Positions 1,468 through 6,507 are shown, numbered from the stretch's first letter. The stretch: DNA of 64,000 bases from Flavobacteriales bacterium (GCA_016702645.1 JADJDP010000013.1:20143-84142); one strand, 5' to 3'. Notes: generated by a model from the sequence alone, not told the origin. Made by a program: numbers and translations.

Positions 1468-1503
1468 CATGGGCACATGACCACATGACCACATGGGCAC
1501 ATG
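1468..1503. repeat. CATG-phased 8-bp tandem array, copy 1
   Basis: CATGGGCA CATGACCA CATGACCA CATGGGCA CATG read directly. The last CATG contains the rsmG start codon. Confidence 0.9.
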
Positions 1504-2115
1504 TCCGGCTTGGATCTCCTTCTGAAGTACTTCCCACAACTTACCGCGGAGCAGCGCGACCGTTTCGCACGCCTTGGCGAACTCTACGCGTACTGGAACG
1601 AGCGGGTGAACCTGATCTCGCGCAAGGATTTCGAACACCTCTACGAGCGCCACATTCTGCACTCGCTGGGAATTGCTCGTGTCGTGCAGTTCAAGAAAGG
1701 AACGCGCATCGTTGACGTGGGCACCGGTGGAGGCTTTCCCTTGGTTCCCTTGGCGATCTTGTTCCCGCAGTGCTCATTCCATGGCATCGATGGCATCGGC
1801 AAGAAGATCATGGCCGTGAAAGGAGTGATCGAAGGACTCGGACTTCCCAATTGCACCGCCGAGCAAGTGCGTAGCGAGGATCACAAGGACCGTTACGATG
1901 TCATCGTGAGTCGTGCAGTTACCACCTTGCCGGAATTCCTTCGAATGACGAAGCACTTGGTGCCGAAAGGCGAAGGACACCTCTACTACTTGAAGGGCGG
2001 CGAACTCGCCGATGAACTGCTACCGGTGAAGCAGCGCTACCGGGTCTTCGAACTATCCAAGGAGTTCGAGGAGGAGTTCTTCGCGACGAAGAAGGTGGTG
2101 CGGGTTGAACTGTAG
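1501..2115 (+). CDS. rsmG: 16S rRNA (guanine527-N7)-methyltransferase
   Basis: 204 aa. GidB-like N-terminus (LLKYFPQLTAEQRDRF..YWNERVNLISRKD) and SAM motif VDVGTGGGFP. Confidence 0.9.
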   Translation: MSGLDLLLKYFPQLTAEQRDRFARLGELYAYWNERVNLISRKDFEHLYERHILHSLGIARVVQFKKGTRIVDVGTGGGFPLVPLAILFPQCSFHGIDGIGKKIMAVKGVIEGLGLPNCTAEQVRSEDHKDRYDVIVSRAVTTLPEFLRMTKHLVPKGEGHLYYLKGGELADELLPVKQRYRVFELSKEFEEEFFATKKVVRVEL

Positions 2116-3010
2116 CGCGGCGCCCTCGGGCCCCCCCGGGGGCGCCCTTCCGGGGTGGTCGGGCGGGGGCCCCCCACCCCCACCTCCCCTCGGGGCTCGG
2201 GTGGGGGGGGGGGGTGGGGGGGGACCGCCGGGGCCCACCCGGGGGGTGCGGGCCGTTCGGGGGGGCGGGGGGGGGGGGGCGGGGCCGGCCCGCCACGGGG
2301 GGGCAACCGGGGGGAAGCCCCCCAGCCACCCCCCCCCCCCCCGGGGGGCGGGGGGGGGGGGGGCCGGGTTTCCCCCTCCCCGCCCCCCCCTCCCCGGGGC
2401 CCCCGGGGGGGGGGGGGGGGGGGGCGGGGGGGGGGGGGGGGGGGGGGGGAGGGGGGGGGGGGCCCCCGCCGGGCCCGGCCCGGGGCGCGGGGGGGGGGGG
2501 GGGGGGCGCCCCCGCCGGCCCCCCCCCCCCCCCCCGGGGGCCGGGGGGGGGCCGCCGGGGGGGGGGGGGGGGGGGTGGGGGGGGGGGGGCGTGGGGGGGG
2601 CGGGGGGGGGCGGGGGCCGGGGGGGGGGCGGCGCGGGCCCCGGGCGGGGGGGGCCGGGCGGGGGGGGGGGGGGGGCGCCCGGGGGGGGGGCCGCCCCCCC
2701 CCCGGACCGCCCCCCCCCCCCCCCGGGGGGGGGGGGGGGGGGGGGCGGGCCCCCCGCGGGGGCCGGGGGGGGGGGGGCGCCCGGGGGGGGGGGGGGGGGG
2801 GGGGGGGAGCCGGGGGGGGGGGGGCGGGGGGGGGGGGGGGGGGGGGGGGGGGGGGGGGGGGGGGGGGGGGGGGGGGGGGAGGGGGGACCAGGGCCCCCCA
2901 CGGGGCGGGGGGGGGGGGGGCCAAAGCGGGGGGGGGGGGGCACCCGGGGGCCGGGGGGGGGGGGGCGGGGCCGGGGGGGGGGGGGGGGGGGGGGGGGGGG
3001 GGGGGGGGGA
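2116..3010. repeat. ~0.9 kb low-complexity tract made almost only of G and C (non-coding, probably artefactual)
   Basis: Starts directly after the rsmG stop (2113-2115) and ends 9 nt before the ABC transporter stop (3019-3021). Uninterrupted G runs at 2826-2879 (54 nt) and 2973-3009 (37 nt). All six frames give poly-Pro/Gly/Arg. Confidence 0.9.
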
Positions 3011-3018
3011 AATGGGGC

Positions 3019-4844
3019 TTACGCCGTAGCCGCCTCGAACTGGAGTTTGCTCAGGCTGTAGTACAGCCCGCCCGTATCCGCGATCAGTTCGTCGTGCGTG
3101 CCGCTTTCCACCACGGTGCCTTTGTCGAGCACCAGGATCTTGTCCGCGTTGCGGATGGTGCTTAGCCGGTGGGCGATCACGATGCTCGTGCGGCCCACCA
3201 TCAACTGGTCCAGCGCTTCCTGCACGAGTCGTTCGCTCTCGCTGTCCAGTGCGCTCGTCGCTTCGTCCAGGATGAGGATAGCGGGATCCTTGAGCACGGC
3301 GCGCGCGATCGCTATGCGCTGGCGTTGGCCTCCGCTCAATTGCACGCCCCGTTCACCCACCACCGTCCCGTAACCGTCGGGGAAACCGGTGACGAAGTCG
3401 TGCGCATTGGCTTTCCGTGCAGCGGCCCGATCTCCGCATCGTTCGCGCCCGGCTTGCCATAGGCGATGTTCTCGCGGATGGTTCCACCGAAGAGCAACAC
3501 CTCCTGTGGCACAATGGCCATGCGATCGCGCAAAGCAGTGAGCGGATAGTCTCGCGCCTCCTTGCCATCGACGAGCATGCTGCCGGAAACAGGATCATAG
3601 AAGCGTAGTACGAGCGAGGCCACTGTGCTCTTGCCAGCACCGCTTGGCCCGACGAGCGCGATCCGTTGACCGGGTTCGGCGATGAAGCTCACGTCGCGTA
3701 GTACGGGTACATCCGCCCGGGAAGCATAGTGGAAACTCACATTGCGGAACTCGATGCGGCCTTGCAATTCGAGGCGCTGCTTGGCTTCCACCACATCGAG
3801 CGCTTCGGCCGTTTCGTCCTGGAGGTCCATGAGCCGCTCGGTGGCGCCCACTGCTTTGAGCAATGAGGTGATCTGCTCCGGTATGCCCGCTATGCTCGCA
3901 CCGATCATGATGCTGAAGGCGACGAAGGCGGTGATATCGCCCACGCTCATCAGCCCGGCCTCCTTCATCACTGCCGCGCGGTACACCACGAAGACCACCA
4001 CGCCGAACATGCAGAAAATGATGAAGCTCACGAATCCGCCGCGCCAGCGTAGGCTCCTCAACGCGAGTTGTCGTGCGCTCATCACGCTCATCCCATAACG
4101 CTGGGTCTCGAACCGTTCGTTGCTGAAGGCTTTCACGTTCTGGACCCCTTGCAGGGTCTCGTCCACGATCACGTTGCTCTCGGCGATTTTGTCCTGTACC
4201 TCCTTGCTCAGCTTCTGGATGTAGCGGCCGAAGAAGACGGCGATCAACATGACCACCGGCAGTGTGGCCAGCATGGTGAGCATGAGGTCGGTGTTGAGGT
4301 AGGTGAGCACCGCGATGCTGGAACCGATGACCACGAACTGGCGCAGGAACTCGGCCAGCACCGTCGTGAACGCCTCTTGGAGCAAGGCAACGTCCGCGCT
4401 GATGCGGCTGTTGAGCTCGCCCACACGCCGCTGCGCGAAGAAGGCCATGGGCAGCTTGAGCAGGTGGGAGTAGGTGTCCTTTCTCAAGCGGGTGAGCGCG
4501 TTCTCCGTCACCGATCCGAAGAACCAGATGCGCCAGAAGCCGAAGAAGGCCTGCGCTGCGAACACGAGCACAAGCAGCTTCAGGATGGAATGCACATTGC
4601 TGAAATCGTCCAGCGGTGCAGCCCAGAAGGTCGTCGGTGTACGCGCATCGATCAAGCGACCGAGTAGCCAAGGGAAGGCAACACTGAGCAAGCTGGTGAC
4701 CAGCAGGCAAAGCATGCCCAGTGCGAAGATCCCACGCTGTTCGCGCATATAGCGGAACACGCGGAAGAACTTCCCCAGCGCCGCTTTGGTCAGCTTCGCC
4801 GGCTTGGCGTCGTCATCGCGCGATCGACCCCTGCTGCCTGCCAT
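3019..4844 (-). CDS. ABC exporter, fused permease-ATPase (MsbA/lipid A export-like); frame broken once (ORFs 3336..4898 and 3019..3363)
   Basis: Six-helix TMD followed by Walker [10 protein letters not shown], signature LSGGQRQR and Walker [13 protein letters not shown]. Adding one base at the C run 3426-3428 restores ..[32 protein letters not shown]. Start taken at MAGSRGRS (4844); the upstream extension lies in the CATG array. Confidence 0.85.
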
Positions 4845-5306: not shown

Positions 5307-5340
5307 TGCTTCCGTATCCGTACTTCGGTTCCAAGCTACC

Positions 5341-5991
5341 TCACACCTTCACCGCGCCCCATGTCGCCGGGTCTTTTCGCCACTCGTTCAACGGCAGCAG
5401 GTCCTTTTCGGTGATGTATTCGTCGTTCAATGCCTGATCGACCAGAACGCTGTAGTTCGTGAGCGAGTGCAGTTGGACCTTGGCTTTGGCGAAGGCCTTG
5501 GTGGCTTCATCGAAACCGTAGGTGAAGATGCTCACCATGCCTTTCACATCACAACCCTCGGCGCGCAGGGCTTCCACGGCGTTGAGGCTGCTCTGGCCGG
5601 TGCTGACCAGGTCTTCCACCACCACCACGCTACGACCCACGGTGAGGTCACCCTCCACCTGGTTCTTCATACCGTGGTCCTTCGCACCACTGCGCACGTA
5701 GATGAACGGGAGCCCGAGATCATGCGCCACCAGCGCACCGTGCGCGATACCGCCCGTGGCCACACCGGCGATCATGTCCGGGCGACCGAACTCGTGGTTG
5801 ATCACATGCACGAACTGCTGGCGGATGTAGGTGCGCACAGCAGGGTAGGAGAGCGTCTTGCGGTTGTCGCAATAGATCGGGCTCTTCCACCCGCTGGCCC
5901 ACGTGAAGGGTTTCTTCGGGCTAAGTTTGACGGCCTTGATCTGGAGGAGGAACTCGGCTACTTTGAGCGCCGGATCGAGCGGGGATGCCAT
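5341..5991 (-). CDS. pyrE: orotate phosphoribosyltransferase
   Basis: PRPP-binding loop VVVVEDLVSTGQSS and FTWASGWKSPIYCDNR. Start chosen at MASPLDP (5991). Confidence 0.9.
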   Translation of the reverse strand: MASPLDPALKVAEFLLQIKAVKLSPKKPFTWASGWKSPIYCDNRKTLSYPAVRTYIRQQFVHVINHEFGRPDMIAGVATGGIAHGALVAHDLGLPFIYVRSGAKDHGMKNQVEGDLTVGRSVVVVEDLVSTGQSSLNAVEALRAEGCDVKGMVSIFTYGFDEATKAFAKAKVQLHSLTNYSVLVDQALNDEYITEKDLLPLNEWRKDPATWGAVKV

Positions 5992-6484
5992 GCAGCGAAA
6001 GTATATCGTTTGGATCGAGGGGAAGGCGCACACGATCAATGAAGGCGCCGATTGGGATGCGTTCCGTGCCGACTACGAGTTCGTGCTCGCCGCTGGTGGC
6101 GTGGTGAACGATGAACAAGGTCGATTGCTCGTGATACGTCGCTTGGGGAAATGGGACCTGCCCAAGGGCAAGGTGGATGAAGGCGAGGGCATTGAAGCCG
6201 CAGCGATCCGCGAAGTGCAGGAAGAATGTGGACTGGATCGCTTGACCATGATCAAGCCGATGCCCTCGACCTGGCACACCTACGAGCGAAAGGGAAAGCA
6301 ACACCTTAAACGTACGGACTGGTTCCTCATGCGAGGCTCTTCGGCCGAAAGGCTGGTGCCCCAGCACGAGGAGGACATCGAAGAGGTGAAATGGGTAACC
6401 GCCGACGAAATATCTATGATCAAAGGTGAAACGTACCCGTCATTGATGCCCGTTCTGGAGGCTTGGGCAGCCATGGGCACATGA
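5990..6484 (+). CDS. NUDIX hydrolase
   Basis: Nudix box GKVDEGEGIEAAAIREVQEECG. Start at MQRKYIV (5990). The last three codons and the stop lie in CATG array copy 3. Confidence 0.85.
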   Translation: MQRKYIVWIEGKAHTINEGADWDAFRADYEFVLAAGGVVNDEQGRLLVIRRLGKWDLPKGKVDEGEGIEAAAIREVQEECGLDRLTMIKPMPSTWHTYERKGKQHLKRTDWFLMRGSSAERLVPQHEEDIEEVKWVTADEISMIKGETYPSLMPVLEAWAAMGT

Positions 6485-6507
6485 ACACATGCTCACATGT
6501 TCACATG
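6472..6507. repeat. CATG-phased 8-bp tandem array, copy 3
   Basis: CATGGGCA CATGAACA CATGCTCA CATGTTCA CATG, between the convergent NUDIX and TlpA-like genes. Confidence 0.9.

Follow-up and report, generated by a model that had tools for sequence, protein, structure and literature searches.

The DNA analyzed here is a 64,000-nucleotide stretch of a Flavobacteriales bacterium assembly (GCA_016702645.1 JADJDP010000013.1:20143-84142), referred to below as the window. Within 5 kb it carries three arrays of an 8-bp unit, CACATGNN. Each array is 36 bp long and conforms exactly to the pattern (CATGNNCA)4CATG, that is CATGNNCACATGNNCACATGNNCACATGNNCACATG; as RNA, a four-unit array reads (CACAUGNN)4. 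All three are solo copies on the plus strand and lie at the positions given in a preliminary description made from the sequence (Table 1). The pattern had no match in 100 dinucleotide-preserving shuffles of the window. A search for 1.5 units (CACATGNNCACATG) that tolerated at most one mismatch gave 9 matches against 0.63 expected. Because every one of these matches falls inside the three arrays, the remaining 57 kb is without arrays, in agreement with the same description.

Genes in the window were taken from a listing of open reading frames (ORFs) and domains from Pfam, and both place all three arrays at gene boundaries, as had been proposed. Array 1 sits after the stop codon of an ECF-type sigma factor gene (TGA 1441-1443) and before the gene for RsmG/GidB. 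The rsmG start codon is the terminal ATG of the array (1501-1503); the protein predicted from it begins MSGLDLLLKY and has the same length as its homologues, which bears out the start assigned previously. A single reverse-type unit, CATGTGAC, just beyond the sigma factor stop is possibly a remnant of an inverted partner of array 1. Array 2, which in the sense of the minus-strand genes around it reads CATGTGNN, lies 3 nt past the stop (4905-4907) of a minus-strand SRPBCC-like gene and upstream of a minus-strand ABC exporter gene, for which CAT 4866-4868 is an in-frame ATG. The spurious N-terminal extension MGMCSCGHVPM that had been ascribed to the arrays is present in the ORF listing at array 2. 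Array 3 fills the gap between convergent genes for a NUDIX protein and a thioredoxin-like (TlpA-like) protein. It supplies the NUDIX stop codon, as first described, with TGA 6482-6484 where units 2 and 3 overlap, and it ends 2 nt short of the stop of the TlpA-like ORF (6510-6512).

Array 1 is spanned by Logan contigs from unrelated activated-sludge metagenomes (X1 record 6 and X2 record 11) and array 2 by further Logan contigs (X1 record 4 and X3 record 19), with no internal indels at either site. In the contigs of four independent metagenomes the unit number was unchanged at arrays 1 and 2, a comparison in which rare variants could hide. In the region of array 3, related strains have a different segment of 69-78 nt. 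We conclude that the window arrays are real and are not artefacts of assembly.

Distribution and Unit Structure

A scan with the 3.5-unit pattern over one genome per GTDB species gave at least 116 loci. In each unit the 6-bp core CACATG is fixed and two positions (NN) are free, the latter being occupied by 16 dinucleotide types. Among the matches listed, unit numbers range from 2.5 to 10.5 with a mode of 3.5-4.5. At least 73 loci with a GC content above 0.5 have arrays of mixed NN, and among the matches listed these all come from ∼35 metagenome-assembled genomes (MAGs) of uncultured Flavobacteriales/Bacteroidota. The array-bearing Flavobacteriales have a GC content of about 60%. Their source habitats are activated sludge, lakes, and groundwater, and several of the MAGs are long-read assemblies, nanopore included. 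The listed matches in other taxa are uniform at NN, as in ordinary microsatellites, except for 4 near-uniform loci of low GC content. All 8 matches on viral contigs (IMG/VR) are likewise NN-uniform microsatellites, and a phage origin of the family was rejected for that reason.

The recurrence of the mixed-NN scaffold in ∼35 MAGs, together with its absence from the shuffles, supports the earlier view of a defined element that is neither a chance occurrence nor a plain slippage microsatellite, and shows that the window arrays are no local curiosity. A literature search found no description of CACATGNN/CATGNNCA arrays, and Rfam scans of window positions 1-9000 and 8 related loci at an E-value threshold of 1 returned nothing relevant. 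The CACATGNN arrays are apparently an undescribed intergenic repeat family.

Across 123 arrays the commonest NN were AG (72) and GG (67), followed by CC (34), TC (33), GT (33), and AC (32), with CT the lowest (17). The bias thus favors RG and is strand-asymmetric (AG 72 versus CT 17; GG 67 versus CC 34). The identical first unit of the window copies had been used as an argument for a fixed design; GG occupies the first unit in only 28 of the 123 arrays, so this argument falls away. The flanks of the 123 arrays show decayed further units.

Polarity and Inverted Pairs

Boundary statistics were derived from local stop-codon and ORF tests because a crude codon-usage gene caller missed some genes. 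When the 49 solo arrays are read in the CATGNNCA orientation, the 3′ (CACATG) end adjoins a likely start codon in 10 and a facing stop codon in 18, whereas the 5′ end adjoins a start in 3 and a stop in 4 (28 boundaries versus 7). Of 106 arrays, 19 probably supply the start codon through their terminal ATG, and 29 have a stop no more than 15 nt from the 3′ end; among 25 stop-adjacent arrays that were measured, 19 have the facing stop at a distance of 1-6 nt from that end. In the sense of the mRNA, (CAUGNNCA)n precedes starts, running into the AUG, and (CAUGUGNN)n follows stops.

Inverted neighbors within 300 nt of each other have the order CATGTGNN..spacer..CATGNNCA in 32 cases and the opposite order in 3, indicating that the typical full element is a pair of outward-pointing arrays around a spacer of 20-154 nt. 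Such composites are found at co-directional, divergent, and convergent junctions. The solo arrays are either minimal forms or what remains after the partner array decays. In some arrays the first CATG is adjoined by an inner "cap," GGCATT(T) or CCACCAAGGAGG-N4-5. A GCATT(T) cap as a general start-codon context was rejected, as it is not general in the window.

At locus L079 the whole composite, arrays and a spacer of 106-113 nt included, occurs twice in the same genome, with flanks that are unrelated to each other. The duplicated composite shows no target-site duplication, although the arrays themselves would mask one of CATG. Near-identical copies of a composite were few. Tandem mosaics of arrays occur in loci L068 and L058. 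The pyrG-yidC intergenic region can be compared between two genomes of 92% identity (L003 2806-2940 and L052 2726-2872). The outer flanks are ∼99% identical and one array differs by a single NN. The 120 nt between the arrays, however, do not align, and the two interiors have nothing in common but the CCACCAAGGAGG motif beside the forward array.

Some array pairs are spaced widely enough to enclose a gene. The ORF between the pair in L045 is lipoprotein-like. In L076 (174-940) a gene for a four-helix-bundle protein of the 23S rRNA intervening-sequence type is bracketed exactly by two CATG arrays, one reverse and one forward. An autonomous element between long-range pairs was rejected because these two ORFs are no transposases. 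The polarity toward gene ends, the inverted-pair composites, and the additional unit families described below are new beyond the preliminary description.

Turnover of Units at Orthologous Sites

The 4.5 units common to the three window copies had been taken as a fixed number. Relatives at the sigma factor-rsmG junction have 8.5 (L015), 9.5 (L114), or 10.5 (L107) units, and L006 has 2.5 units together with a 3.5-unit inverted array past the sigma factor stop, so that the copy number is not fixed. Some relatives have only reverse-oriented arrays at this junction, and at the position of the lone reverse unit in the window (1448-1455) relatives have reverse arrays of 1.5-4.5 units. In the closest relative, whose RsmG is 92% identical, the forward 4.5-unit array of the window is replaced by a reverse-type array of 3.5 units. 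A sample of junctions chosen regardless of arrays was drawn from RsmG relatives in metagenome contigs; 14 of its 43 clade sigma factor-rsmG junctions have CATG arrays, in varied arrangements. Arrays have been kept at this junction across genomes of 67-92% RsmG identity. At the site orthologous to array 2, L114 has a partly decayed array of 2.5 units, and L022 has a (CATCCTCT)-like array with a different 8-nt unit.

NN differences between orthologous arrays amounted to 3/16 where the outer flanks are at least 97% identical, 13/22 at a flank identity of 90-97%, and 55/66 below 90%. Unit number often differs too, and one orthologous pair resembles a two-unit cyclic shift (AG-TC-GT-CC versus GT-CC-AG-TC). 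Because unit number and NN vary between genomes whose flanks are 95-99% identical, turnover of the slippage type does occur. NN and unit number evolve faster than the flanking DNA; the arrays turn over by gain and loss of units while the hexamer and the 8-bp phase stay constant. A start codon survives a change in unit number because every unit has an ATG, the frame rotating through all three.

Folding of Composites and Transcripts

Two composites fold better than their shuffles (-99 and -94 kcal/mol; z = -5.8 and -3.9), and the stability of the composites stems from the hexamers. A hairpin formed by single arrays was rejected, the z-scores being near 0. At 11 of 14 co-directional junctions the antisense strand folds more stably than the sense strand, the mean difference being 9.3 kcal/mol. 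Stabilization of the sense-strand RNA by G-U pairs was rejected, the opposite having been seen. Forward arrays are CA-rich and would therefore give a weakly structured leader before the start codon, with which the less stable sense strand is compatible.

Other Short-unit Families in the Clade

Further families were sought in the unbiased junction sample and in a Tandem Repeats Finder pass over 117 clade loci (700 kb). Within the clade, other families with units of 7-8 nt adjoin starts and stops with the same inverted-pair layout (Table 1). In the GGCGAGT family the G-rich arm of the inverted arrays always comes first, and the density of the family is comparable to that of the CATG family. Two unit families can be mixed within one intergenic region: at the sigma factor-rsmG junctions of L155 and L166, a ATCTGATC array adjoins the GTG start of rsmG and CATGTG arrays follow the sigma factor stop. 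A generic inverted-repeat scan was noisy, and only long tandem-unit palindromes were informative.

The inverted repeat of the GAAAGCT family in the window is located between divergent genes, and its loop, AATGCCGTCCG, holds the ATG of ORF 51224-52126. At the sigma factor-rsmG junctions of L139 and L140 (1270-1500) there are about four tandem copies of a repeat of ∼47 nt (ccggaggtcatgccggaaggcgggcagcgcgcagcgacggggtcccg).

Table 1. Positions of the CATG arrays in the window and of other short-unit arrays in the clade
Feature	Position	Strand	Description
CATG array 1	window 1468-1503	+	4.5 units, forward; NN = GG, AC, AC, GG
CATG array 2	window 4866-4901	+	4.5 units; NN = GG, TC, AG, CC
CATG array 3	window 6472-6507	+	4.5 units; NN = GG, AA, CT, TT
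Single reverse-type unit CATGTGAC	window 1448-1455	-	4 nt past sigma factor stop
GGCGAGT..ACTCGCC family	six loci		inverted pairs in four
GGCGAGT inverted arrays	L058 4327-4395, L060 3736-3832, L061 995-1077, L084 5411-5479		9-40 nt loops
GGCGAGT single arrays	L045 2140-2173, L111 368-441
GATCAGNN / ATCTGATC family	L155, L163, L164, L166 and others
GATC-core 8-nt family (AGATCAGA / ATCTGATC)	L163 1329-1492, L164 728-891, L155 1477-1500, L166 1469-1502, L148 1396-1420		sigma factor-rsmG junction
GAATGTR family	several loci
AAGTGAC family	L069
ACACCTC family	L141, L157, L171
GAAAGCT family	window 51189-51266		27-33 nt inverted repeat, arms = tandem heptamers gaaagctgaaagctgaaaggg .. cctttcagctttcagcc

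Other Features of the Window

Window positions 2130-3010 (∼880 bp), located between the stops of rsmG and the ABC exporter gene, consist almost purely of G/C homopolymer runs, and the GC content over 2001-4000 is 0.77. Orthologous loci L114 and L107 have ∼30-100 nt of normal sequence in place of this block, and Logan contigs from X2 and X3 read TCTTGGATCGTCC... past position 2123 instead. The block, which yields long spurious Pro/Gly ORFs, is probably an assembly artefact. Relative to the window, the contigs of all four DNA runs also have insertions of T after 3427 and of CC after 6953. The former indel splits the ABC exporter gene into ORFs 3336-4898 and 3019-3363, and the latter parts the thioredoxin-like domain (6510-7061) from a 444-amino acid ORF (6670-8004). 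The window assembly thus appears prone to indel errors.

Elsewhere in the window, positions 30641-32668 hold long in-frame tandem repeats with modules of 150/298 bp and 117/240 bp, mostly of 91-92% identity. They lie inside a 950-amino acid ORF (30680-33532) that probably encodes a repetitive Cys-rich surface protein.

Discussion

We tentatively read the CATG arrays as a lineage-specific intergenic repeat family, represented in the window by solo copies, that acts in cis at the borders of genes and whose 6-bp core probably serves as the recognition site of a factor. Both this recognition and an action at the level of RNA are inferences. A sequence-specific factor would read the conserved hexamers, one per 8 nt, and the arrays would act within the transcript. 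Forward arrays would form a CA-rich, weakly structured leader containing the start codon, and reverse arrays a trailer right behind the stop codon. Between two genes, an inverted pair could form a long imperfect hairpin, with possible effects on mRNA processing or stability, or on the translational coupling of the two genes. The composite can be copied as one unit. The preliminary description offered three options for the arrays, of which the REP-like intergenic element and the protein-binding array fit best; the third, a cluster of CATG methylation or restriction sites, is set aside below.

Several observations weigh against this reading. No factor binding the arrays was identified. Paired arrays show no excess of NN complementarity over NN drawn at random from the pool (mean z = +0.18, n = 14), so that the hairpin, if relevant, is not refined by covariation. 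Arrays 1-3 of the window, folded with their flanks, do no better than dinucleotide shuffles (z = +0.63, -0.14/-0.43, and -0.08/-1.30). Metatranscriptome contigs are thin at the window locus and none lies over the arrays, leaving no direct RNA evidence. In the unbiased junction sample, 29 of 43 junctions are without a CATG array, so that no single site requires one. The sequence around the matches contains a further array site about once per 85 kb, a low density that suggests tens of sites per genome, with hundreds unlikely. Orthologous arrays retain perfect hexamers, and this conservation is partly an ascertainment artefact because the arrays were found by a perfect-match pattern. The polarity of the solo arrays could be inherited from decayed composites. 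Finally, the existence of several unit families with one layout favors a generic process over one dedicated reader per family.

The closest published parallels among short-unit repeats are the direct repeats of the heptamer TAACTGA in Beggiatoaceae, Cyanobacteria, and a few Bacteroidetes (MacGregor 2015, PMC4679880). These sets typically comprise 2-6 head-to-tail copies, are intergenic and lineage-restricted, and have neighbors without a common theme and a function that is unknown; in Flexibacter litoralis the distance from a forward-oriented set to the downstream start is 1-43 nt, and one reverse-oriented set follows a stop (PMC4679880). The CATG arrays share with them the short tandem unit, the intergenic location, the forward orientation before starts and reverse orientation after stops, the lineage restriction (among the matches listed), and the unrelated neighbor genes. 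Unlike the TAACTGA sets, they have a unit of 8 rather than 7 nt with two free positions, so that the copies are non-identical; the unit itself contains a start codon, inverted pairs are frequent, and the clade is a different one. The STRR heptamers of Cyanobacteria form several 7-nt tandem families per lineage, which are intergenic, occur in tens to hundreds of copies, and have near-identical units. Coexistence of several short-unit families in the array-bearing clade is a likeness to STRR, whereas the 8-nt unit with six exact and two free positions is a difference. We know of no six-plus-two scaffold or strict start/stop polarity reported for STRR.

The main rival, which we consider somewhat unlikely, is that the arrays belong to a selfish, non-autonomous mobile element of the miniature inverted-repeat transposable element (MITE) or REPIN kind with no host function. 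The arrays would then be multi-site terminal inverted repeats for a transposase or recombinase encoded elsewhere, and the solo arrays dead ends. The fixed outward polarity of the inverted pairs fits such an element, as do the copying of a whole composite between unrelated flanks in one genome, the tandem mosaics, the replacement of a spacer between 92%-identical genomes with conserved flanks, and the variable presence at orthologous sites. The same holds for the occurrence at co-directional, divergent, and convergent junctions alike, the unrelated housekeeping neighbors, and the clustering of the three window copies within 5 kb. However, the duplicated L079 composite has no target-site duplication, the long-range pairs (L045 and L076) enclose no transposase, and the copy number is low. 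Terminal ATGs serving as starts (19/106) and stops at 1-6 nt make random insertion unlikely, unless CATG is the target, and arrays persist at one junction across 67-92% RsmG identity.

Among known mobile repeats, REPINs are inverted REP doublets with a spacer that replicate as a unit and BIMEs are alternating mosaic clusters (PMC3116915, PMC3337134, PMC3733652), and the REP palindrome carries a GTAG or CGTC tag at one end (PMC3733652). The CATG family resembles REP, BIME, and REPIN elements in being intergenic, in its inverted doublets and mosaics, in its persistence at orthologous sites, and in the one duplicated composite (L079). MITEs combine terminal inverted repeats with a target-site duplication and exist in numerous, almost identical copies; array-type inverted termini are present in the CATG family. 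In contrast to a REP, an imperfect palindrome of 20-40 bp, the single CATG array is no palindrome and gives no hairpin fold; it has an internal periodicity of 8 bp, and the copy number of the family appears low. A RAYT transposase (Y1 HUH), whose gene REPs usually flank, was not identified for the CATG family in a sample that included no whole genome of the clade. No GTAG or CGTC tag is present in the flank profiles of the 123 arrays, which contain decayed CATG units only. The family resembles both REP and STRR/TAACTGA repeats, yet departs from the former in the features that define them and from the latter when these are taken strictly. An alternative origin, also unlikely in our view, is that the arrays would be stacked footprints of an undescribed element inserting at CATG, each cycle adding an 8-bp unit and scrambling the NN at the junction.

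Translation initiation in the Flavobacteriales group is independent of Shine-Dalgarno pairing. A far-reaching variant of cis action, which we regard as unlikely, would make the arrays a gene-boundary code in these high-GC Flavobacteriales, with an oligomeric nucleic-acid-binding factor stepping along the 8-nt register of CACAUG core and two free bases. By reading forward arrays up to their final AUG and reverse arrays from just past the stop, such a factor would control translation initiation, termination-reinitiation, or the formation of transcript ends at many genes without a common theme.

The arrays may alternatively be read by nothing and be neutral by-products of slippage and template switching at palindrome-prone intergenic DNA, tolerated where harmless. 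This explanation, which we judge improbable, would account for the many families of 7-8-nt units with one architecture, the quick changes in unit number, the dispensability at a given site, and the low density. Slippage homogenizes units, yet the NN are heterogeneous in almost every array and the hexamer is exact; a strand-asymmetric NN bias and a strong polarity toward gene ends are also at odds with it.

Contiguous operator boxes, such as the 8-bp met boxes of MetJ and the 7-bp heptads of the omega repressor, occupy promoters that belong to a defined regulon or plasmid operon. The CATG arrays are similarly contiguous, with 2-10 copies in direct or inverted orientation, a conserved core, and free edges. 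They could thus be operator-like arrays in double-stranded DNA, bound by one ribbon-helix-helix-type or nucleoid-associated dimer per 8 bp and acting as a repressor site, roadblock, or insulator. Four units would span 32 bp, about three helical turns, and a core that is kept while NN drifts would suit this arrangement. We nevertheless consider it quite improbable: unlike met boxes and omega heptads, the arrays lie on start and stop codons across the chromosome and not at promoter distances, the neighboring genes are unrelated (rsmG, yidC, tsaE, recR, cmk, surE, tatD, ridA, and others) and form no regulon, a cognate protein was not found, and several other unit families have the same layout.

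Simple sequence repeats at contingency loci, such as the tetranucleotides of Haemophilus and Neisseria, are identical units that are hypermutable within a population and sit in surface or restriction-modification genes. Phase variation of this kind, in which gain or loss of an 8-bp unit shifts the frame or promoter spacing of a neighbor gene, is very improbable for the CATG arrays even though these are short tandem units at gene 5′ ends that touch start codons, with a unit length that is no multiple of three and a unit number that varies between species. Slippage is suppressed by the NN differences among CATG units, the arrays adjoin housekeeping genes, and the unit number is constant at arrays 1 and 2 in the contigs of four metagenomes. 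A cluster of CATG methylation or restriction sites, serving epigenetic control or as a restriction hotspot, is scarcely credible: each 36-bp array does hold five CATG sites, but CATG is neither avoided nor enriched elsewhere in the window (379 observed versus 388 expected, ratio 0.98), the conserved unit is the asymmetric CACATG at an 8-bp phase and not the CATG palindrome, and the cores of the sister families, such as GGCGAGT, are no 4-bp palindromes.

Short intergenic repeat families such as REP/REPIN, STRR, and TAACTGA are common, but functions have been established for few of them, and descriptions from Bacteroidota are scarce. The CATG family has a built-in control in that its six fixed and two free positions separate constraint from drift inside one element. 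In MAG annotation the arrays cause false N-terminal ORF extensions and ambiguous starts, and they could act as clade-specific markers. The strict polarity to start and stop codons links the arrays to gene boundaries; should they have a reader protein or act at the RNA level, they would provide a new handle on gene-boundary control in Bacteroidota.

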